The notes below the pieces were generated by a model, which saw only the letters and a program-made list of their open reading frames with translations, searched no databases and was not told where the DNA came from. From an uncultured virus (IMG/VR IMGVR_UViG_646564563_000001) (lineage: Duplodnaviria; Heunggongvirae; Uroviricota; Caudoviricetes): a DNA stretch of 21,692 nt. Shown here one piece after another: positions 820 to 16,448 of the stretch. Location: IMG/VR virus record IMGVR_UViG_646564563_000001. The stretch is one strand, 5' to 3'. The translations under genes and the position numbers were made by a program. How positions within the stretch are numbered: position 1 is the first letter of the stretch; each line of letters opens with the position of its first letter.

Positions 820-896
820 TGTCGAAGCGGTGCGGCGGTGACTGCCCTTCTAGCCGCTTCGGTGCTGCGACCCGATCACCCGGGCCGCTTTCGTTT
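820..896 (+). ncRNA. Candidate structured antisense small RNA (about 75 nt)
   Basis: Follows the promoter. Stem CGAAGCGG/CCGCUUCG (823-830/854-861) is extended by G-U pairs that form only on the + strand. Second hairpin at 867-888 is followed by UUUCGUUU. Confidence 0.45.
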
Positions 897-2357
897 CCAG
901 AGCAGCTTTCCGACCCTTTGCTTGTCGATGTGGCTGTAGTCCGGCTTGGCACGGTTGAAGGATGCGTAACCGGTGACTGCTCCCCACGCCTTGCGCCCGA
1001 CCTCAAACAGCACTTGCAGCGAAGTCGTCTGATCGACTTTGATGTAGCGCCGCGTCACCATGAGCTCTTCATAAGCCGGGAAGTATCCGGAGACTGCGTC
1101 AACTGGTACCGCGCGCACGCCCATCCAGATTTCATCCGGGTTCATGATCGCTTCAGCCAAGAGCGCCGCATATTCACCGCGGCCGCGTTTCATGAGCTTC
1201 GACGCTCCAGAGTGTTCAAGGAAAAGCTGCTCGGAAATGACGATCGTCGCTCCGGATTTGTCCTCCCAAAGCGCAGCTTTCCCGACGTCGGCGCCAAATG
1301 GCTCAAGGAATGCCCTCAGATAATCAGGCTCAGGGAGACCTTCAGGCATGCGCTCTGCCGTGAACGGCACCGATGCCGCAAGCAGATCCGCCATCGGCTC
1401 CGCTTTGTCGATCGACACGACATGATGCCCTTTCAGATCTCCGGTCAAGATCGCACCCCCGTCATTGAGGAGCGCCGACGGCACAAGGCCGCGCTCCCAC
1501 AGATCGCCCGGCATGTAATCCCAGCCGTAGCCGATCCCCTCGGGAAGCTCGATCACCGCACCAGTGGCCCTGTCGATGTGCTTGACCATCGAAGTCTCAG
1601 GTGCCTTGTCCGGCCCGTCCTTGCCCATGCGCCGCAGATCACCGCGCGAGAGCGTCCGCACACCGCAGCTGCAGACCCAATCGTTCGGCGGGAAATGCGC
1701 ATCCCACCACGGATCGTTCCAGAACAGCACCAGGTTGTGCCAGGAGGTGTGCTCCGGCCGCGGGTTCAGCGGCACCCGGGTTTCTCCGTGGCGGTATTGC
1801 CAATAGGGCCGCACCTTGACCACATCCGGATCGCGCATCTGCCGCAACCTCCCGGCCATGTAGCTCGTGCGGATGTTCGTCTCGAAAATGGTGCGGATGC
1901 GCCATTCGCGCCCGCCGTTGTAGGACCAGCCGTATTTTTCGACGAGACGGTCGAACTCGTCCGCGAAGGCCTTGATGTCGTAAGTGCGCGCGCCCTCGAT
2001 GATCGCCTGCTGGAACTCCTCCAGCATCGCCATGTCGGTGACCCCCGCCACGACAAAGGCGCGGTCGTGATCGCCCTGCATCGCATCCGTCCAGGCGGTG
2101 GTGGGCTTGCCCCGCTTTTGCGTCAGGAAATCGATCTGTTCGCGGAACTCCTGACGGGTCAGATCGACATCGGCAAAGCTGACGTCTTCCCAGTCCGCGA
2201 AGACCGCCTCGCGCCCCTCCAGCGCCGCCAGCTGCATCGCCTGGGAAAAGAGCGCGGCCAGCGCATCGGGCGTCCAGGTGGCGCCGATCTCCAGCACGGC
2301 CCTGGCGGCTGCGTCAAAATCCTCGGCCGTCTCGATCGCCTTGCGCACAGCGGCCAC
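876..2357 (-). CDS. Mu gpF (MuF) minor head protein with C-terminal PBECR2-like nuclease domain; start uncertain, probably reached by frameshift from the portal gene
   Basis: MuF motifs RAFVVAG, RTIFETNIRTSYMAGR, RPYWQYRH and FPPNDWVCSCGV. C-terminal PDEIW...RRYI...VTGY...QRVGKLLW. GTG start has no SD, and the frame stays open upstream past the portal stop. Confidence 0.9.
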   Translation of the reverse strand: MAAVRKAIETAEDFDAAARAVLEIGATWTPDALAALFSQAMQLAALEGREAVFADWEDVSFADVDLTRQEFREQIDFLTQKRGKPTTAWTDAMQGDHDRAFVVAGVTDMAMLEEFQQAIIEGARTYDIKAFADEFDRLVEKYGWSYNGGREWRIRTIFETNIRTSYMAGRLRQMRDPDVVKVRPYWQYRHGETRVPLNPRPEHTSWHNLVLFWNDPWWDAHFPPNDWVCSCGVRTLSRGDLRRMGKDGPDKAPETSMVKHIDRATGAVIELPEGIGYGWDYMPGDLWERGLVPSALLNDGGAILTGDLKGHHVVSIDKAEPMADLLAASVPFTAERMPEGLPEPDYLRAFLEPFGADVGKAALWEDKSGATIVISEQLFLEHSGASKLMKRGRGEYAALLAEAIMNPDEIWMGVRAVPVDAVSGYFPAYEELMVTRRYIKVDQTTSLQVLFEVGRKAWGAVTGYASFNRAKPDYSHIDKQRVGKLLWKRKRPG

Positions 2358-7454: not shown

Positions 7455-8383
7455 CAGAAGCTCCTCAGGGTCGCGGCCAGGCGCGGCGCGCGGCCTTGGA
7501 TTTTCGCGGCGATCACGTCGCGGTAGGCCCACGCGAGCCACAGGCCCCACAGCCCGATCACCGCGGCCGCAGCGCCGATCGCCCAAGGCTGCGCGGCGAT
7601 CCAGTCAGTGATGTCCGACATGCCGGTCGGAGCCGTGGCGCTGACGCCGGTGGCCGTGGTGCTGACACTCGCCAAGGCGACGGGCTTGGCCTTCTCGGCA
7701 GCATCGAGACGCCGTTGCAGGGTGGACAGGGTGGCCCGGCCGATCTTGCCATCGATCGTCAGACCGTGATCGGCCTGGAAGCGGCGGATCTCGGCCGCGG
7801 GAATGGCGAGGGAATCGAGCCCGACTTTGTAGCCGAGCTTTCCAAAGGCCGTCATCGCGTTCAGCTTTTCGTCGAAATTGAGCTTCAGCACCCATCTTGC
7901 AAGGCTGACCGAAGGACGGCCAATTTCCAGCAGCACCGGATATTCCGCATCGAACAGGATGCGCAGTTCCCGATCGCGCCGCTTGACCAGCCCGGGAAGC
8001 ACCTTGCCGCCACCCTTGTTCCACAGGCGGAATTTCTCGGAAATCGCCGCTTTTCCGGCCTTGCGCGCCCAAAGCGGCACCCACGACGCCTTCTGGATCG
8101 CCCCGGTGTTCCAATCGAACAGAACGCCCGCGTCGAATTCGTGCTGCTTGGCCCCGGTCATCACCAGGGCGACACGGGGCTCATACTTCGCGGCCAACGC
8201 TTTCTTGGTCAGATCGCGCGATTGCTGGGCGGTGATGACCATGCCAGCCTTCGGAGTAATGACGCCCGAGGCGGCAGTCAGGCCCGGCCCGATCGTCCAT
8301 TTGCCCGCGGGGCACCGATAGGCCCGCAGGACATTGCCTTCTTCGAGCTCAAGCGCCTCGACGCCTTTATCGCTGGTCTGCAT
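7454..8383 (-). CDS. Endolysin: GH24 lysozyme plus peptidoglycan-binding domain plus C-terminal hydrophobic tail, 309 aa
   Basis: E-x8-C-x5-T triad (EGNVLRAYRCPAGKWTIG), LPGLVKRRDRE, and FQADHGLTIDGKIGRAT. ATG at 8383 has a GGAG RBS. Confidence 0.93.
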   Translation of the reverse strand: MQTSDKGVEALELEEGNVLRAYRCPAGKWTIGPGLTAASGVITPKAGMVITAQQSRDLTKKALAAKYEPRVALVMTGAKQHEFDAGVLFDWNTGAIQKASWVPLWARKAGKAAISEKFRLWNKGGGKVLPGLVKRRDRELRILFDAEYPVLLEIGRPSVSLARWVLKLNFDEKLNAMTAFGKLGYKVGLDSLAIPAAEIRRFQADHGLTIDGKIGRATLSTLQRRLDAAEKAKPVALASVSTTATGVSATAPTGMSDITDWIAAQPWAIGAAAAVIGLWGLWLAWAYRDVIAAKIQGRAPRLAATLRSF

Positions 8384-8421
8384 TTCTTGCTCCGCGCGTT
8401 TTCCAACCTCTGGCACGCGCG

Positions 8422-8454
8422 CGAAAGCAAAACCCCCGGACACAGGTCCGGGGG
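8422..8454 (-). promoter_or_regulatory. Palindromic late-operon element, copy 1 (putative Mor/C site and/or terminator)
   Basis: Directly after the mor stop and upstream of the endolysin (Mu Plys position). 9-bp inverted repeat followed by UUUUGCUUU on the - strand. Confidence 0.7.
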
Positions 8455-8823
8455 TCAGTCGTCGGGAAAGAGGGGGAGCTGATCGGGCGGCCTGTTCGCC
8501 AGCCGCCTGACATGGCGCTGTGAGATCCCGAGCGTGGCGGCGATCTCGCGCCGCCCGCGCCCGGTGTCGGCCAGCCGCTGCACATCGAGACGGCGCATCC
8601 TGCTGCGGCCGTGGGGCACATAGAGCCGCTGCCCGGACAGGAAATGGCAGAGTTGCGCCGCGACACCCTCGCCCAGGACCTTCACCAGCTCGGCCGAGGG
8701 CTTGCGGCGCGGAAACTCGACTTCCTGCCCCCCGAAATGTTGCATGAGACTGAGGGCAACGCCAAGCCCAAAGGTTTCCGCCACATCGACAAGCGACTCG
8801 GGCACGTCAGGGCTGAGGGTCAT
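8455..8823 (-). CDS. mor: Mor/C family transcription activator, 122 aa
   Basis: FGGQEVEFP and SGQRLYVP motifs with a C-terminal HTH (REIAATLGISQRHVRR). Precedes the lysis genes. Confidence 0.85.
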   Translation of the reverse strand: MTLSPDVPESLVDVAETFGLGVALSLMQHFGGQEVEFPRRKPSAELVKVLGEGVAAQLCHFLSGQRLYVPHGRSRMRRLDVQRLADTGRGRREIAATLGISQRHVRRLANRPPDQLPLFPDD

Positions 8824-8871
8824 GATAATCTCCGGGGCGCGTGAGGGGAAAGCGTCAGGGGTAGGACCATT

Positions 8872-9549
8872 TTAGTCCGGTTCGTTGACAGAAAGTGAGA
8901 GGCAATTTTTCGCTCCGGCGACACCGTGCGAAAGTTCCACTCTCTCCCCGGCCGCAAGCCCCGCGAGCAGCGCCTTGCCGTTGCGCAGCTTGGCGGGCGC
9001 GGGACCCCTGACCGGCGTGCCGCCTGGAAACATCTGGTCCCGCGCCGACATGGCGAGGCTGCGCGCTTCGGACGATCTGACACCTTCAAACAGCGCCTCA
9101 AGCTTCATCTGCAGACGCCGCACCATGGCATGCGTGAAGTCCTGGACAGCGCGACGTTTGCTGTCGATCGACCGGCGGCGCTTGTAATTCTGCGAGCCCT
9201 TGTATTCGGCAATCGCACCATCAATCGCCCGGCCGAGCACGACGAAAAGATAAGCCGCAATCTCAGGGCCGGGTCCGGCTCCGACAAATGTTGCCCGACC
9301 AAACTCATAAATCAGCGCGGTGTTGGTGTTGCGGGCCAGCGTCCCCCAGAGCGGATCGCGCGCCCCGTTACCGTTCGTCTTCGACTTCGCCGAGGCCTTC
9401 CCGAACAGGACATCAGCTTCGGTCAACCCGTGTTCCTGCATCAGTTGCGCCGCTTTTTCGGCGGCGGCCATCGCTTCGGCTTCCGAACAACCGCGGGCTT
9501 TGGTCATTCCCAGAAGGGCGGCGATCCTGCGTTTAACGTCGTCGGCCAT
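8872..9549 (-). CDS. DUF2786-like protein, 225 aa
   Basis: N-terminal RIAALL...SEAEAMAAAEKAAQLMQEHGL signature. Confidence 0.8.
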   Translation of the reverse strand: MADDVKRRIAALLGMTKARGCSEAEAMAAAEKAAQLMQEHGLTEADVLFGKASAKSKTNGNGARDPLWGTLARNTNTALIYEFGRATFVGAGPGPEIAAYLFVVLGRAIDGAIAEYKGSQNYKRRRSIDSKRRAVQDFTHAMVRRLQMKLEALFEGVRSSEARSLAMSARDQMFPGGTPVRGPAPAKLRNGKALLAGLAAGERVELSHGVAGAKNCLSLSVNEPD

Positions 9550-9656
9550 CAGCGCAGCCCCCAGAACACGGCGGCGGTGACGACGATCATCGCGCCCGGG
9601 GCGGCGACGGTCAGCCAGTAATGGGCGCGCAGATAGTCAAGCACGAAGGTCATCAT
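9549..9656 (-). CDS. 35-aa membrane microprotein (MMTFVLDYLRAHYWLTVAAPGAMIVVTAAVFWGLR)
   Basis: Exactly fills the gap with ATGA and TGATG overlaps. GGAG RBS. Confidence 0.65.
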   Translation of the reverse strand: MMTFVLDYLRAHYWLTVAAPGAMIVVTAAVFWGLR

Positions 9657-10099
9657 TTCCGATCTCCCTCTCTGGGCAATTCGGTGGGGATGTTGTGGCG
9701 TTTGCACCAGGCCTGCAGGGCCTCGATCACGGTGCTGATCTGCTTGGCGTCGGTCATCCGGTCGATGTCGATCGGCACCGCGCCCCAGGCGGCGCCATAG
9801 CGCGACCGGATGAAGGCGTTCAGCCCCTTCGCGCCCGCCACATTCGCGACGCCCGCCTTGTGCAGCAGGCCCCAGAGGACATGGCAGTAGCGAACATCGC
9901 GGCGGGCGGCGGGGGCGCGCTTGCCGCCGGTCTTCTGGAAGCCCATGCGCTTCATCTCGTCAAGAACCGCAGTTTTCTGACGGTCCGTCATCAGCTTCAG
10001 CGAAGCCTTCCCGGTCACCCGCTCCAGCATGGCGCGGTAATCGTCCTCGGCCATGCCGATCTGGCCCTTGGCGATGTTGATCACGGTGTTCAGGTTCAT
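9653..10099 (-). CDS. gemA: GemA (Mu gp16/DUF1018) family protein, 148 aa
   Basis: INIAKGQIGMAEDDYRAMLERVTGKASLKLM and VIEALQAW. ATG at 10099 overlaps the upstream stop. Confidence 0.9.
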   Translation of the reverse strand: MNLNTVINIAKGQIGMAEDDYRAMLERVTGKASLKLMTDRQKTAVLDEMKRMGFQKTGGKRAPAARRDVRYCHVLWGLLHKAGVANVAGAKGLNAFIRSRYGAAWGAVPIDIDRMTDAKQISTVIEALQAWCKRHNIPTELPREGDRK

Positions 10100-10311
10100 T
10101 TCAGCCCCGCATGCGCTTTGAGGATCGCGACCTCGATGTCGTCGGCCCCGAAGTTCGTCTGAGCCGCCTCGATGTGAAACACAGCGCCCGTGCACATCGT
10201 CACCCGCAGCGCCCGAAAGCCGCTGGGCTTGGGAGTGGGCCCCGTGACCCACTCCATCGCCGCGACGAACTGCGGGTTGATATGCACCCCGAAGTCGGTC
10301 GAGATCATCAT
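10096..10311 (-). CDS. Small hypothetical protein, paralog of 3826..4050
   Basis: HINPQFVAAMEW motif. ATGA overlaps on both sides. Confidence 0.8.
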   Translation of the reverse strand: MMISTDFGVHINPQFVAAMEWVTGPTPKPSGFRALRVTMCTGAVFHIEAAQTNFGADDIEVAILKAHAGLK

Positions 10312-11192
10312 TTCAGGACACCGGCCCGGGCGCGCAGCACCTGCAGCAGCTGCGTCTGCCGCTCGATCGTCACGCCGTTCGGCGTCAGCGCGATGAAGCG
10401 CGCCTTGGCCTCGCCAACTTCCTTGCCGATCTCGTCAGCCACGACGGCCATCTGCTTGCCGCTCGCCAGACCTTCGACCAGCGCCAGATCGAGGCCCGCC
10501 GACCAGCCGCCGCGATAGCCGAGCTTGCCCAGGAACTCGGTCAGCTCGCGCCACCAAAGCGGCTTGGGCTCATCCTTTTGTGCGGACACGTCGGGCAGCG
10601 GGGCGATGGGCGCCACGAACGCCGCAACGGACTGCGTCGCCGCCTTTTTCTTCGCCCCAGACCAGGCCACATAGCGCCCGCGCAGCTTGGGCATGCTCAC
10701 GCCCAGCGTCGCGGCGACTTCCGCCATATTCGACCCGCCTTCGACGGCCAGGAAGGCATCAGCCCAATCCGCATCGCTCGGCTCGCCCCGCGGCGCGGCC
10801 ACCTCGGCAACGGCGGCCTCGACGGGCGGCGCGACCTCTTCGACGGCGATGTCTACCGCATCATCCGCGACCTCGGCGGGCTTCGACGCGATGATGGCTT
10901 CGAGCAGCTTGTCGGCATCCTCCGTGCCCAGCGGCTCGAATTCCGTGTCATAATCGTCCGCGACGGCCGGATGCTCCTCGATCTCGATCGTCACGCCGTG
11001 AAAATCGGGGGCCGAGTCGTTTTCCAGAAGCTCGTCTGGCTGGTCGGGTTCTCCGACGCGCAGGCTCTCAAGGTCATTCAGACCGTCAGCAACGGTCTCC
11101 GCAAGCGCGGCATCATAAAAGACCGCGACCGTGACCGGCCTCAGCGCGTAGAGCTCGACGCGACCGTCTTCGAGCTGGTTCGTGTAATACAT
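10308..11192 (-). CDS. Acidic protein with two HTH-like segments, 294 aa
   Basis: ATG at 11192 with GGAGG RBS. D/E-rich middle region. MAEVAATLGVSMPKLRGRY and MAVVADEIGKEVGEAKARF. Confidence 0.8.
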   Translation of the reverse strand: MYYTNQLEDGRVELYALRPVTVAVFYDAALAETVADGLNDLESLRVGEPDQPDELLENDSAPDFHGVTIEIEEHPAVADDYDTEFEPLGTEDADKLLEAIIASKPAEVADDAVDIAVEEVAPPVEAAVAEVAAPRGEPSDADWADAFLAVEGGSNMAEVAATLGVSMPKLRGRYVAWSGAKKKAATQSVAAFVAPIAPLPDVSAQKDEPKPLWWRELTEFLGKLGYRGGWSAGLDLALVEGLASGKQMAVVADEIGKEVGEAKARFIALTPNGVTIERQTQLLQVLRARAGVLK

Positions 11193-11202
11193 GCCATCCT
11201 CC

Positions 11203-11268
11203 GGCTGCTCATCAGGCCCCGGCCACCACGCCGGGACGACGCCCCCGGTTGTCCGGGGGCGTTTCGCG
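11203..11268 (-). ncRNA. Hammerhead ribozyme, type II topology
   Basis: GC-GAAAC, stem III (GCCCCCGG-acaa-CCGGGGGC), GUC, stem I (GUCCCGGC-guggug-GCCGGGGC), CUGAUGA-GC. All core nucleotides are present. Confidence 0.92.
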
Positions 11269-11544
11269 TCAGGATTTCTTCGGCTTCGCGGGCTTGAAGG
11301 CGAGATGCGCGCTGGCGGGGATCTCGACCTGTTCCCCGGTGGCCGGGTTGCGGCCCATGCGCGCCTTTTTCTGACGCTGTTCAAAGGAGCCGAAGCCCAT
11401 CAGGGTCACCTTCGACCCGGCTTCGGTCTGGGCGGTGATCACGCCCAGCGTGGCGTCCAGCATGTCCTTGACGTTGGTCTTGGCAAAACCGGTCTGGGCC
11501 GCGACTGCGTCGACCAGGTCGGATTTCGAGAAAGTCTTGCCCAT
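11269..11544 (-). CDS. hup: HU family DNA-binding protein, 91 aa
   Basis: KSDLVDAVA, VTLMGFGSF and GRNPATGEQVEIPA. AGGAGG RBS before ATG 11544. Confidence 0.95.
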   Translation of the reverse strand: MGKTFSKSDLVDAVAAQTGFAKTNVKDMLDATLGVITAQTEAGSKVTLMGFGSFEQRQKKARMGRNPATGEQVEIPASAHLAFKPAKPKKS

Positions 11545-11636
11545 GGGGGCCTCCTGTTTGGTTCGGTTGGTCTTCTGAGTGGGTCCGCGAGTGGCGGGGT
11601 AGGCCCGGCCGGAGTGGACGGCCGGTAAAAGCGTTG

Positions 11637-11873
11637 TCAGTGATGGCGATCGATCTCTTTTGCTTTGCGCAGCCACGCCTTGACGGCGGCGCGATCGCCT
11701 TCGGTGCAGCTCGCGGTGATCCGGCACAGCCGTGCCGTGTATGTGCCGCTGGAAAACCTGACGCTGCCGCCATAGCCCTGAAACACGTTCAGCAAGCTTT
11801 CGTCGGGCGCACCGTCCAAGCCGACGATCACCGCCTCCAGCACCTTCCCGCTATCTTGGTCCGCGCGCATCAC
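11637..11873 (-). CDS. Hypothetical protein, about 78 aa
   Basis: GTGA overlap with the gam stop; GGAGG RBS. Confidence 0.7.
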   Translation of the reverse strand: MMRADQDSGKVLEAVIVGLDGAPDESLLNVFQGYGGSVRFSSGTYTARLCRITASCTEGDRAAVKAWLRKAKEIDRHH

Positions 11874-12412
11874 ACCCCCTCCGGCAGTTCGGTCTCGAAC
11901 GGCTCCACGATGAAATCTTCGCCGTCGCTGCCGATCGTGACCCCGGCGATCGTCTTGGCGAGCTGGCGGTTGGCCAGCATCGCTTCCTTGTTCAGCTCTT
12001 CCTTGGTGCGAATGAACTGCGCTGCCAGACCCAGCTTCTTGATCGTGGCAAGCACCTCATCGACCTTGCGGATCGTCACTTTCGCGGGCCGCAGCTTCCA
12101 GCTGATCTCGCCCGTCGTGAAGCGCGCGAACTTGACCTTGTTGCCCCGCGTGAGCCGGTCGCGATTCACCTCGCAGAACATCTTCAGGCCTTCGGTCTTC
12201 GCCTCGATCTCGGCACGCAGCGGCTCGACCAGCGTCCCGTATTTTTCCTGCAGGGCCGCGATTTCGTCATTCAGATCCGCTTCGGCGCGGGCAATCTTCC
12301 GGTTCAGATCGCCGATCTCGCGAATGGCGCTGCGCGCCTCGCTGTCGTCTTGCGGGATCGGCAAAGCGCTCGCCTTGGTCTTGGTCTTCTTGGACCTGTT
12401 AGACACCGTCAT
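11870..12412 (-). CDS. gam: Mu Gam-like host-nuclease inhibitor, 180 aa
   Basis: Coiled coil, then FCEVNRDRLT, TGEISWK, IRTKEELNKEAM and EDFIVEP. Confidence 0.93.
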   Translation of the reverse strand: MTVSNRSKKTKTKASALPIPQDDSEARSAIREIGDLNRKIARAEADLNDEIAALQEKYGTLVEPLRAEIEAKTEGLKMFCEVNRDRLTRGNKVKFARFTTGEISWKLRPAKVTIRKVDEVLATIKKLGLAAQFIRTKEELNKEAMLANRQLAKTIAGVTIGSDGEDFIVEPFETELPEGV

Positions 12413-12764
12413 TTCCTTTCGTCGGGTTGATGGGGCAGGCCCGGCAGGCGCCCCAGTGCTTCAGCTTTTCGGGGTTCGAGGTGGACATCGGCGCGGTGGC
12501 GAAGGCCCGGCAGTCGTCGGCCGAGATGCCGCGGCGCAGGTGCGGGCACATCATCTGGGAGCGGTAGAGCTGCATCACGGCCGCGCCATGCTTGCGCGTC
12601 ACCAGATCGAGGCTCTTGGCCGGATAGGTGCCGTTGATCAGCATCGAGACGGAGGGCCGCTTCATGCCAACTTCGCGCGCGATCTGCGCGATCGGCTTGC
12701 CCTTGGCCGCTTCGGCCTTCAGCAGCTCGATCCATTCCGGGTTCGGCAGCGAGATCAGCGACAC
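12399..12764 (-). CDS. HTH protein with C-terminal Cys cluster, about 121 aa
   Basis: IAQIAREVGMKRPSVSMLINGTYP and CPHL...C...ACRACP. Confidence 0.85.
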   Translation of the reverse strand: MSLISLPNPEWIELLKAEAAKGKPIAQIAREVGMKRPSVSMLINGTYPAKSLDLVTRKHGAAVMQLYRSQMMCPHLRRGISADDCRAFATAPMSTSNPEKLKHWGACRACPINPTKGNDGV

Positions 12765-13345
12765 GGGATATCCTCCCCGGTGTTGAAATCGTGCACGATG
12801 CCCAGTTTCGAACGATGCAGCGGCGCCCGGGGTCCGGTGTTGCGATCCAGGCGAAACCGCTTCAGCCCATTCGACCCGGGCTTCGTGCCCTTCCGACGCC
12901 CGGGCAGCTCCGACACATACCCGGAGGATTTCAGGACGCGGATATAGCTCCCGGCGTTGGTCATCGCGTCGCGCTCGCCATCGACGGCATCGCAGACCAC
13001 ATCCGAGATCGTGAAGGTCCCGCGCAGCCGCATCGAGCGCCAGACGCGATCGCGAAACCCGTTCGTTTCGGGGCGCGACAGCACATTGCTAGAGGCATCG
13101 ACCGGGCCGCTGGTGATGACCTTGCCATCGGCAATGGCCTGTAACCCGCGGAAGGTGATCTTGTAGATCCCGGGCCGATCGCGGGAGATATAACCGCGAT
13201 CGACCAGCGACGCCGCCGCTTTCGACACCCGCTTCGGGGACACCTCCAGCGCAAGGGCGATCTGGATCGTCGGTGCCGTCAGCGGAAGCGCAAGGTGCTG
13301 CAGCACCTTCATCTGCAGCTCTCCGGGGCCAAAGCTCGCCATCAC
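12755..13345 (-). CDS. Tandem winged-helix DNA-binding protein, about 196 aa
   Basis: Two wHTH-like units and a RNTGPRAP motif. Follows B, as in other Mu-like phages. Confidence 0.8.
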   Translation of the reverse strand: MMASFGPGELQMKVLQHLALPLTAPTIQIALALEVSPKRVSKAAASLVDRGYISRDRPGIYKITFRGLQAIADGKVITSGPVDASSNVLSRPETNGFRDRVWRSMRLRGTFTISDVVCDAVDGERDAMTNAGSYIRVLKSSGYVSELPGRRKGTKPGSNGLKRFRLDRNTGPRAPLHRSKLGIVHDFNTGEDIPCR

Positions 13346-14115
13346 GCCGCCACCGTCACGATGATTTCCTTGCCGTTCGTGCGGTCGGTCATGATCGGCT
13401 GACCGGCCATGTCGGCCAGCGTCACACCGTCATCGTCGATCTCGGCGCGCAGGCCGAACCGTTCGATATGCGCGATCGCGTCCAGGATTTCCCGGTTGAA
13501 GCCCTTCGAGGCCCGCCAGACATACTGGATCAGCTCCTCGGCGACCGGCACCTCGCACCGCTCGCGAATGATGGCCCGGGCGTCGTCGATCGTGGCGGGG
13601 GTGAACGCGACCTTGTTCGGTGCCCGGCTCTCGATCTGCGGAAAGCGGCGCAGGTTGTCGCGCAGCGTTCCCATGCCGACAAGGATCGTCGGCAAGAACT
13701 TCAGGTCGGAAATACCGCGGATCGCCTCCATGATCTCGCCGCGCGACGACACCAGGTCGCATTCGTCGATCACGATGCCGAAGGTCCGATCCCGCAGCGC
13801 CGCCCGATCGGCCCGGTCTTGAAGCTCGCTCAGGACACGCGCGAACCGATCCCGCTTGCCGCGGATGCTCTTCGGGTCTACCGACAGTTCGGCCAGAAGC
13901 TCCTGGATGAACCAGCCGTAATCCCAGCCCTTCTGCGCCCGCAGATAGACGCTGCCAGTCTGGGTGACCCAGCGATTGAGCGTCGTGGTCTTGCCAAGGC
14001 CCGGCTTGCCATCGACAACGACCATGCAGGCCTCTTCGGCGCCGCGTTCGTTGAGCTTCTTAAGCGAGGCGTAGAATTCGCGGACGTTGCTCGTCTCGAC
14101 AAAAACGTTTCTCAT
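13342..14115 (-). CDS. MuB-like transposition AAA+ ATPase, about 257 aa
   Basis: Walker A GKPGLGKT and Walker B IVIDE. Start 14115 is preferred because of its GGGAG RBS; 14130 is the alternative. Confidence 0.93.
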   Translation of the reverse strand: MRNVFVETSNVREFYASLKKLNERGAEEACMVVVDGKPGLGKTTTLNRWVTQTGSVYLRAQKGWDYGWFIQELLAELSVDPKSIRGKRDRFARVLSELQDRADRAALRDRTFGIVIDECDLVSSRGEIMEAIRGISDLKFLPTILVGMGTLRDNLRRFPQIESRAPNKVAFTPATIDDARAIIRERCEVPVAEELIQYVWRASKGFNREILDAIAHIERFGLRAEIDDDGVTLADMAGQPIMTDRTNGKEIIVTVAA

Positions 14116-14147
14116 GTTATGCTCCCTCATCTTCCCAGTGAAGTTCG

Positions 14148-16448
14148 TCAGGCAACGGCGCGGAGGAGGTTTCGCAGCGCCTCCAAGTCGATGCCTGACA
14201 TTCGAAACAGCTCCCGCGCGGTCGAGCTGTTCAGGCAGCCCCGCAAAACGGCGATCTGGTTAGGTTTCAGTTCTTCCGGATGCTCCAGCGCCCAGGCGGC
14301 GAGCGCCTCGTCCGAAGCGAAGGTCCGACGCTTCGCAGCGGGTGCCGATGCAGCTTCGACGGGCGCAATGCTGACGGTGCTCGGCGCGGTGATCGTCACC
14401 ATCTCGGCCGCAGGCGCATCGAACATTCCTGCGGGGATGTTCTGAGCCCGCAGATCGACCAGCTGCTGCCCCGCGCGCTCGGCTTCAACGGCCGCGACCT
14501 TGCGTTCCAGCCGCTTCAGCTGACCCTTGGCGCGGTTTTCGATGGCCTGCTGCTCATAGCTGACCGGGAAATAGCGCTCGGCATTCGCCATGAAGCGGGC
14601 AACGCAGATCAGTTTGCCGGGCTGCCCGGTTTCCTTGTCGAACTCGCGCACCCAGACCCGATCGGCCTGGTGATAGTCGTAACCGACCATCACCTTCGGC
14701 TCGTGATAGGGGGCAAGCGCGTGATCGAAATACTGGTTGGTGTTCCACAGCACCTCGCCGCGCCGTGTGGTACGGATCTCGTAGGGGCGGAAAAGATCGT
14801 CGGCCTCGGCCGGATCGACCGTCACGGGCTCGAAACCGCGCACCACATGGGCCTCCCAGCACTCGTTGGGCGACATGTGGCGCAGCTTGCCCGTCTCCGG
14901 GTCGCGGATCTGCGGCAGGCTGCTGTGCGGCTTGGCGTTGTATTCGGCGACCATGTCCTCGCACAGCTTCACGAACTCCGCCCAGGTCGGCAGGTTGCGC
15001 GACCGGCCGTATTCGCGGATCTCGCGACGGGTCAGCTTGTGGATCTTGTCGCCAGCCTCCTTGTCCATGTCGGTGCCGATGTAGGTCGGCAGGCGCTTGG
15101 CAAGCCGGTCCCAGATCGTGTGCTGAATGCGCTCGATGCGCCCCTTTGCCTGCGACCCATAGGGCGCGGCATGGGCCTTCGTGATGCCCAGCCGCCCCAT
15201 CAGGCCGGACACGTCAGCATCCATCGCCTCGTTGCGATAGCCGGGGCCGCGGTCCACATAGAAGATCGCGCAGATCCCGTGCGAGACGCAGGACCGCCGC
15301 AGCGCCTCGGCCACGGACTTCTGATTTTCCGACCGGCCAAGCGAAATGCCAACCACCTTGCGCGTCACCAGATCCATGACCGTGGTGATTTCGGGCCGGA
15401 TCGCATTGTGGCTGACCGGGTCCTCGATCTCGGCGTCGAAGGTCTTGCCGTCGGCGGTGTAAACCGTGGTCGGCCACATGTCGTCGGTGGTGCGGGTGAC
15501 ATAGGGCAGGCGCGAGCGCAGTGTCAGCATGCCTTCGCGGCCGACGTGCTTCTCGATGTTGTTCATCCGCACCCGCAGGATGTATTCGACCTGCGACAGC
15601 GTCAGCGTCATCAGCTGCACACCGTCTTTCGCCGCGGCTTCCTTGAGATATTCGCGATAGGCATCGGCGATCGACGGCTTGCTGGGCATAGCATAGTGCC
15701 GAAGGAAGTCCGCGAAGGCGGGCGGGATCGGCATTTCCTCTTTCGTCGCCGCAGGGGCCAGCGCCACGACGCCCTTTTCGTCGCGAGTCTTGAACCAGTC
15801 ATAGATCGCGCTGCGACCGACAGAGGGCTTGCCGCGGCGGTCATTCGCCACCACGATCCGCTCCGGGTCAATCATGAACCCGGTCTTCAGAAGCAGCGGC
15901 CGCGCCAGGCTGGCGATCTCGCGATCCGTCAGGATTTCCCCGCAATCCCGCCGCGCCTCGATTTCCTGACGCACGACCATCGCGGCCTGTGCGTTCAGGA
16001 ACTGCGCCACGCCCCAGGCACGGCCCATCCCCTGCGAAATCGCATAGCCCTCGATCGCCTTCAGGATCTCGGCACGGGCTTCCATCACATTGCGGGCGCG
16101 GGCGGGCAGCGTGCTGGCCTTCAGCGCCGCGATCCGGCGATCATCCGCCGAGTGCTCGGCCTCCAGACGGGCTTTGAGGCCAGCAGTGATCAGACTGCCC
16201 TCATAGGCCAGCCGCAGCGGCTCCGGCATCAGGCTGATGTGGTACTCCATCCCGCCGCCGCCGACCTTTCCGGGGCGCTTGCGGGCCAGATTTTTTCCAA
16301 GCTCATTCCATCCATTGCGCGCGGCATAATCTCTGGCGCCGCGCTCGGCTTGCGGAAAGCACGTCAGTCCGCGCGCTTTGGAGATCTCAGCCAGCTCGCG
16401 TGCCGTGAAGAAGGTCTGAGGTGCGGAAGTCGTCACAAGGTCTTTCAA
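14148..16448 (-). CDS. MuA-like DDE transposase, 766 aa
   Basis: N-terminal Mu DNA-binding domain (FTARELAE...GGGMEYH). Catalytic motifs TADGKT, YVDRGPGY and KGRIER; YNAKPHSSL. TTG start overlaps the upstream stop. Confidence 0.96.
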   Translation of the reverse strand: MKDLVTTSAPQTFFTARELAEISKARGLTCFPQAERGARDYAARNGWNELGKNLARKRPGKVGGGGMEYHISLMPEPLRLAYEGSLITAGLKARLEAEHSADDRRIAALKASTLPARARNVMEARAEILKAIEGYAISQGMGRAWGVAQFLNAQAAMVVRQEIEARRDCGEILTDREIASLARPLLLKTGFMIDPERIVVANDRRGKPSVGRSAIYDWFKTRDEKGVVALAPAATKEEMPIPPAFADFLRHYAMPSKPSIADAYREYLKEAAAKDGVQLMTLTLSQVEYILRVRMNNIEKHVGREGMLTLRSRLPYVTRTTDDMWPTTVYTADGKTFDAEIEDPVSHNAIRPEITTVMDLVTRKVVGISLGRSENQKSVAEALRRSCVSHGICAIFYVDRGPGYRNEAMDADVSGLMGRLGITKAHAAPYGSQAKGRIERIQHTIWDRLAKRLPTYIGTDMDKEAGDKIHKLTRREIREYGRSRNLPTWAEFVKLCEDMVAEYNAKPHSSLPQIRDPETGKLRHMSPNECWEAHVVRGFEPVTVDPAEADDLFRPYEIRTTRRGEVLWNTNQYFDHALAPYHEPKVMVGYDYHQADRVWVREFDKETGQPGKLICVARFMANAERYFPVSYEQQAIENRAKGQLKRLERKVAAVEAERAGQQLVDLRAQNIPAGMFDAPAAEMVTITAPSTVSIAPVEAASAPAAKRRTFASDEALAAWALEHPEELKPNQIAVLRGCLNSSTARELFRMSGIDLEALRNLLRAVA

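Follow-up and report, generated by a model that had tools for sequence, protein, structure and literature searches.

A type II hammerhead ribozyme between HU and the next gene in the early region of an RcapMu-type transposable phage

On the minus strand of the window (the whole stretch of DNA analysed, 21,692 nt), the gap between the stop codon of an HU gene and the next Shine-Dalgarno (SD) sequence is occupied by a type II hammerhead ribozyme. It is a genuine and ordinary example of a ribozyme family already described, and its setting, too, is of a known kind. The occurrence of type II hammerheads in prophages, their link with Mu-like genes and the idea that they process transcripts are already published; what is newly added here is a fixed slot in transposable phages, the frequency with which it is filled, the geometry of stop codon, ribozyme and SD sequence, and a list of tractable phages. 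Taking the evidence together, we lean towards an active ribozyme, a portable module that would punctuate the early transcript of a transposable phage. Papers are cited by PMC number, each for the part of its text that was covered.

Structure and conservation of the ribozyme

The Infernal/Rfam check proposed in the preliminary description gave a match to Hammerhead_II (RF02276) at 11199-11269 on the minus strand, where that description had placed the ribozyme, covering the full model (positions 1-66) with 71.9 bits, against a gathering cut-off of 37 bits, and an E-value of 1.7e-13. This is the sole Rfam match in the window at E<=1 and the one Hammerhead_II match in the whole 3.87 Mb genome, and the Rfam search found the family absent from 14 of 14 control genomes. 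A core-only pattern gave one match in the window and matched none of 100 shuffles, and the folding z-score of the ribozyme was -3.15. The catalytic core agrees with the consensus CUGANGA, GAAA and NUH without change, as CUGAUGA (11215-11209), GAAA (11265-11262) and GUC (11240-11238); we take G12 A13 A14 A15.1 for 11265-11262, C3-A9 for 11215-11209 and C17 for 11238 to be the standard numbering. In the fold, loops close stems I and III and stem II is open, which is the type II permutation, and the loop of stem I (UGGU, 11228-11225) pairs with the 3′ tail (GCCG, 11205-11202) over 4 bp, the minimum set for the pseudoknot. The parts, in order of transcription, are as follows:

11202..11267, minus strand: whole type II hammerhead ribozyme, beginning with the 5′ strand of stem II and ending with the pseudoknot strand (RF02276, covariation)
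11262..11267, minus strand: 5′ strand of stem II, GC (11267-11266), and core GAAA (11265-11262) (sequence; invariant in 20/20 aligned)
11239..11262, minus strand: stem III hairpin, 10 bp (11262-11253 with 11248-11239), ACAA loop (fold; 3/5 tested pairs change on both sides)
11237..11238, minus strand: predicted cleavage site, after the C of GUC (G11240 U11239 C11238) (inferred from the hammerhead consensus)
11216..11237, minus strand: stem I hairpin, 8 bp (one G-U), GUGGUG loop, starting at the first base of the 3′ product (fold; 7/8 pairs change on both sides)
11209..11215, minus strand: core CUGAUGA (sequence; Rfam alignment)
11202..11208, minus strand: 3′ strand of stem II, GC (11208-11207), A11206, and pseudoknot strand GCCG (11205-11202) (covariation alignment)
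11198..11202, minus strand: SD sequence GGAGG, 5 nt before the AUG at 11192, its first G common to the pseudoknot (sequence)

These details refine what had been described from the sequence at first. Of the two 8-bp stems then proposed, stem I stands, its eighth pair (C11230-G11223) being kept in 159 of 162 homologues, C-G/G-C swaps included, and the bulged stem I register of Rfam holds less well (142 of 162); stem III has 10 bp instead. The ribozyme was rightly placed at the HU stop, its exact start being 1 nt after it, and GCCG does overlap the next SD sequence, by the single base G11202. The last four bases of the SD sequence are predicted to be unpaired before and after the cut, in a fold prediction on the stems without the pseudoknot. 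The printed structure of RF02276 pairs positions 2-3 with 57-58, while the homologues speak for a stem II made of 3-4 with 57-58, and hence the mismatch flag that Rfam sets on the 11199-11269 match is not a defect of the RNA.

Conservation was examined in 20 aligned homologues. Pairing is kept in 96.6% of the cells, and 11 of 19 pairs change on both sides; this level of covariation was reached by 0 of 500 shuffles, which is not to be read as a probability because the sequences are relatives and the structure was derived from them. The covariation value was 0.510, compared to at most 0.114 in slid controls. In the pseudoknot, 98.8% of the cells are paired, one pair swaps from G-C to A-U in 2 of the 20 and two vary on one side, and further pair swaps occur among 162 parsed copies, a set that was filtered for paired stems and mostly found by a pattern that fixed the loop. 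The G-C and C-G pairs of stem II are kept in 20/20 and, being invariant, give no covariation signal. In 161 of 162 homologues, the cleavage position holds a C; the catalytic core was fixed in the pattern searches, unlike in the search that gave the Rfam-found set, and the homologues are related, so that such counts are not independent events. As far as can be judged from these sequences, the RNA structure is under selection, with a core that is kept and stems that vary by compensation.

Type II identity, a cut at 11238/11237, the UGGU/GCCG pseudoknot and, as a prediction, the splitting of the polycistron had all been put forward in the preliminary description, and each is backed by the Rfam match, by covariation and by the activity published for similar prophage ribozymes (PMC3088659). 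In that work, hammerheads in prophage clusters cleaved themselves in vitro (three tandem sets) and, for one set, in E. coli. Two points count against activity: the pseudoknot of the window copy has just two Watson-Crick pairs, and 4 of 18 consensus hammerheads that were assayed proved inactive (PMC3088659). On balance, we consider it highly probable, from comparative evidence, that the RNA cleaves itself in vivo.

The RNA evidence consists of assembled contigs from 4 of 24 listed runs, with no DNA run as a control. In runs X11 and X14, which come from different studies, contigs break off before and after the ribozyme, with no loose ends, leaving 11216-11267 (X11) and 11227-11290 (X14) uncovered. 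The stops do not fall at one place, both runs have other breaks, and in each of runs X1 and X8 one contig spans the site, which counts against cleavage. As GC-rich hairpins can cause such gaps, they are a weak hint of cleavage at most. The same contigs gave two observations on the region upstream. At window position 11906, inside gam, 4 of 4 runs have G and not C, owing to a strain difference or a reference error. A 95-nt contig of run X14 matches 33 nt of the window (11745-11777) with one mismatch, between flanks that resemble a repeat array of the host, and is possibly a CRISPR spacer against this prophage; a second copy of the repeat-flanked sequence was not found in the host genome, and it may belong to another strain or subpopulation.

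Genomic setting and the slot in transposable phages

The window carries MuA, MuB, gam, HU, gemA, a DUF2786 gene and a mor/C-like activator gene, followed by lysis and head genes. MuA, MuB and gam upstream and gemA and mor downstream lie on one strand with the ribozyme, as in a Mu-like early operon, and over 701 bases around the ribozyme the sequence is 100% identical to that of the transposable phage RcapMu. The neighbouring features are as follows:

11870..16448, minus strand: upstream early genes, transposase A, MuB and gam
11269..11544, minus strand: gene of an HU-like DNA-binding protein, 91 aa, with a UGA stop 1 nt before the ribozyme (Pfam PF00216, E 3.8e-26; record annotation)
10308..11192, minus strand: first downstream gene, 294 aa (PHROG 23215, a family with no assigned function)
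8431..10311, minus strand: rest of the predicted 3′ product, with small ORFs, gemA, the DUF2786 gene, the mor/C-like activator gene (8455-8823) and a terminator-like hairpin (8456-8431)

The 294-aa protein had no Pfam match, its atlas matches were all below 0.8, and a viral search returned just the identical copy. We infer that a single transcript runs through 8431..10311. Two further features of the window were recorded: the terminator-like hairpin after the mor/C-like gene (8422-8454) is repeated at the window start (1-33, 32/33 matching), and the MuF minor head protein (876-2357, minus strand) ends in a PBECR2 nuclease-like domain (E 1.4e-29). The ribozyme region was also considered as a terminator or a promoter, and both readings were discarded, as there is no minus-strand terminator at the site and no sigma-70 site in 8300-12800, in a scan that excludes phage-activated promoters.

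The RcapMu record has no ribozyme annotation in this stretch and marks a potential -1 frameshift at the HU end. Hairpins that stimulate a ribosomal frameshift there, giving an extended or fused protein, would account for that mark, and the frame of the downstream gene is indeed open through the ribozyme in the window. That open frame, however, is +1 and not -1, and the -1 frame stops after a short extension. Moreover, the frame relation is mixed among 48 homologues (20, 19 and 9), with the downstream frame open in 11 only. A programmed -1 frameshift site was therefore rejected, because the frame relation is not conserved and the -1 frame closes early, and we regard a frameshift of any kind as very improbable.

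Besides RcapMu, ten named phage records carry a ribozyme at the matching place according to Rfam, namely RcWaterboi, vB_PeaS-P1, KS10, RS1, B23, D3112, JBD30, LPB1, vB_PR2c and a Ralstonia phage. Scans with the RNA pattern alone found at least 122 stretches each in viral contigs and in cellular genomes, of which the flanks of 80 each were analysed. Among the matches listed for viral contigs, 67 of 77 distinct ribozymes are preceded on the same strand by MuB, Gam or DUF3164 and followed on it by GemA or Mor, and at least one flank is as expected in 72 of 77; among those listed for cellular genomes, both sides are as expected in 64 of 81 and at least one side in 72 of 81. Placement on the wrong side was seen in 1 of 88 (viral) and 2 of 81 (cellular) of the matches listed. 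The search pattern was built from the lineage of this ribozyme, so that the fractions apply to its subtype and not to type II hammerheads as a whole. The gene directly upstream is HU in 26 of 77 viral and 25 of 81 cellular cases among the matches listed. In one transposable phage (L060:3100-4813), the ribozyme lies just after mor and not before gemA, with a second copy 760 nt further.

The frequency was estimated from 60 gemA loci chosen by protein alone, comprising 20 of 30 matches in 201 family genomes and 40 of 62 in 401 phylum genomes. The source genome, the weakest matches and most of the repeated matches within a genome were left out. The loci were found with a Pfam model on whole genomes, a GemA alignment being too diverse as a search seed. 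Hammerhead_II is present in 11 of the 60 loci and missing from 49; for complete intervals from gam/DUF3164 to gemA, the numbers are 11 and 41 out of 52. All 12 Hammerhead_II hits in the sample fall inside this interval on the sense strand. The ribozyme occurs in 6 of 9 intervals with HU, compared to 5 of 43 without. Among related genomes, 10 of 61 have Hammerhead_II above the cut-off, the source genome included. The early regions of Mu, B3 and BcepMu gave no Rfam match, no other ribozyme family reached the Rfam cut-off in the 60 gemA loci, and a descriptor found no type I or III hammerhead in the slot, with a sensitivity that is not full (it recovered 9 of 12 type II hits). The ribozyme is thus optional in gemA loci, and any benefit is not general.

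Such patchy presence (11/60) is what would be expected of a near-neutral passenger, or of a homology block travelling with cassettes of accessory genes, whose cut is of little consequence; in several loci (e.g. L047, L033 and L036), a single gene has a ribozyme on either side, as this reading would also have it. Compensating stems around a kept core, however, point to selection on RNA structure and not on DNA identity, and this makes the passenger explanation decidedly unlikely.

Possible purpose of the cut

The arrangement of the window copy recurs. The stop triplet is separated from the ribozyme by 0-1 nt in 70 of 124 distinct copies and in 40 of 81 cellular ones (background 3.3% per position), and in 74 of 124 the start codon follows the core at a distance of 15-20 nt. 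An SD-like motif has its first base on the last base of the pseudoknot in 44 of 124 and 21 of 81 copies, whereas no such motif was found in 25 and 26 of them. Stem II is preceded by an A in 95 of 162, a position that is partly constrained by the ribozyme. This spacing would suit a cut that is gated by translation, in which stem II and GAAA are hidden under a ribosome terminating at the HU stop and the pseudoknot is opened by a 30S subunit bound to the SD sequence, so that the RNA is cut mainly when translation lags. The tight stop spacing is nevertheless missing from about half of the homologues and the SD overlap from most of them, ribosome occupancy is brief compared to a cut rate of about 1 per minute (taken from another type II RNA, PMC3088659), and compact packing explains the spacing equally well. 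We consider gating to be quite improbable; tight packing of phage genes may alone account for the adjacency of stop and SD sequence.

The genes that follow the ribozyme vary: 88 downstream proteins fall into 38 clusters, the largest with 16 members. Copies also occur in arrays. A 57 kb viral contig, which has none of the Mu-like markers used, carries 24 type II hammerheads on one strand within 7.6 kb (L032:1910-8225; G642:C1:9932-17520), with nearly one ribozyme between each pair of small genes of no assigned function. After each of the 19 copies examined come an SD-like motif and an ORF, which mostly has 50-125 codons and usually ends at the next ribozyme; PHROG matches were obtained for 2 of 14 of these ORFs, in both cases with a family of no assigned function. 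The largest prophage hammerhead clusters described in the text covered are triples (PMC3088659), and this array may merit its own study. Other clusters without Mu-like markers are found in Streptomyces phage Paolo (L014, four copies) and in two further contigs, G643 (L056), with 4 over the cut-off, and G644 (L025), with 2.

The preliminary description had suggested a role in late-gene timing. This is not supported, since 49 of the 60 gemA loci, together with Mu, B3 and BcepMu, are without the ribozyme, the next gene varies, and the unit of stop, ribozyme and SD sequence punctuates small genes in a contig without Mu-like markers. A related possibility is that the cut lowers downstream expression, the 5′-OH product decaying faster, so that accessory genes, gemA and mor are damped relative to the transposition genes and later transcription is delayed. 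The glmS precedent (PMC6765202) and a slot that lies upstream of gemA and mor, with so few wrong-side placements among the matches listed, agree with this, as does a lower contig depth downstream in one RNA run, a kind of depth that cannot rank genes. On the other hand, the product would open with a paired hairpin and a strong, open SD sequence, most gemA loci lack the ribozyme, a separate promoter is marked just before gemA in one phage record, and the 24-copy array is hard to square with the damping of one regulator. Damping is therefore, in our view, unlikely.

We favour a general role in punctuation or insulation over the control of one regulator because the downstream gene varies and because of the 24-copy array. 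Once GCCG is transcribed, the pseudoknot would close and the RNA would cut itself at 11238/11237 without protein. The upstream RNA (..gam-orf-HU) would end 31 nt past the HU stop, with the 10-bp hairpin and a cyclic phosphate. The downstream RNA, from the orf at 11192 to gemA and mor, would begin with a 5′-OH on the 8-bp hairpin, followed by an open SD sequence, in a 45-nt leader; as the terminator-like hairpin at 8456-8431 follows the activator gene, its length would be about 2.8 kb if transcription is continuous. In E. coli-type pathways, a 5′-OH hairpin stabilises RNA against decay. The two halves would then have separate half-lives and would lose translational coupling, and any following gene would receive the same leader, as with the engineered insulator RiboJ; a uniform leader would suit the variable stretch of genes between gam/DUF3164 and gemA. 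The opposite effect is known from glmS, whose cleavage triggers decay (PMC6765202). All in all, insulation or stabilisation is the purpose that we judge somewhat probable.

More tentatively, phages might use the type II hammerhead as a natural, reusable insulator, in the form of stop, ribozyme and SD sequence, by which new early genes become separate, protected and uniformly translated mRNAs; transposable phages would have placed it at the entry of their variable early region, and at least one phage would cut some two dozen genes into single-gene messages. We hold this wider reading to be possible rather than probable. If true, it would assign a definite function to the most common of the orphan ribozymes of bacteria. 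The RcapMu-type host phage is inducible (PMC8601537), the ribozyme has a single copy in the genome, and the same place is filled in the much-used Pseudomonas phages D3112 and JBD30, so that one point mutation in the core would test function without redundancy. Hence, these phages are a simple test system for the purpose of the cut.

Comparison with known systems

Type II hammerheads with a 2-bp stem II and a pseudoknot, clustered in prophages, have been proposed to process transcripts into operon- or gene-length mRNAs (PMC3088659). The window copy shares with the RF02276 RNAs of Perreault et al. 2011 (PMC3088659) the open stem II of 2 bp, the core, the pseudoknot of loop I with the 3′ tail, the prophage setting and the processing idea, and there is no structural difference; the clusters described there lie near integrases with variable genes, whereas here a single copy lies in a fixed slot. 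No R. capsulatus, D3112 or KS10 entry was found in the searched part of the supplements of that paper. The strongest gene associations of ribozymes are with Mu-like phages, for a reason stated as unknown (PMC10085705), and hammerhead and twister ribozymes alike are enriched in the neighbourhood of genes of Mu-like phages (as summarised by PMC10085705 and PMC6765202). The preliminary description was right that type II hammerheads are known in prophages and missed this published association (PMC10085705), which is resolved here to one interval and strand, with a frequency of 11/60 gemA loci. Among the literature matches listed, no paper deals with this copy or with the fixed slot; subscription papers lay mostly outside these matches, and the 2014/2015 association papers and the RcapMu supplements may cover them. 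Three papers treat these phages (PMC8601537, PMC4378225 and PMC9936078), and the word 'ribozyme' is absent from their main text as far as it was covered.

The crystal structure of the PK hammerhead (PMC11300833) has the same catalytic core as the window copy. In the PK hammerhead, a pseudoknot and an extra helix IV replace helix II, whereas the window ribozyme keeps stem II and has its pseudoknot between loop I and the 3′ tail; with stem II present and no helix IV, assignment to the PK variant (PMC11300833) was rejected.

Apart from glmS, the self-cleaving ribozymes of bacteria are described as having a role that is still to be settled (PMC6765202). With glmS, the window copy has in common the self-cleavage of a bacterial mRNA that leaves a 5′-OH upstream of a gene, which is a prediction here; glmS differs in having another fold, needing a metabolite and triggering decay (PMC6765202), and no ligand site is evident in the window ribozyme. 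RiboJ (PMC8750797) likewise cuts itself just upstream of the SD sequence and so gives a standard leader. As RiboJ is engineered and placed after a promoter (PMC8750797), whereas the window ribozyme is natural and lies inside an operon, the likeness is a functional analogy only.
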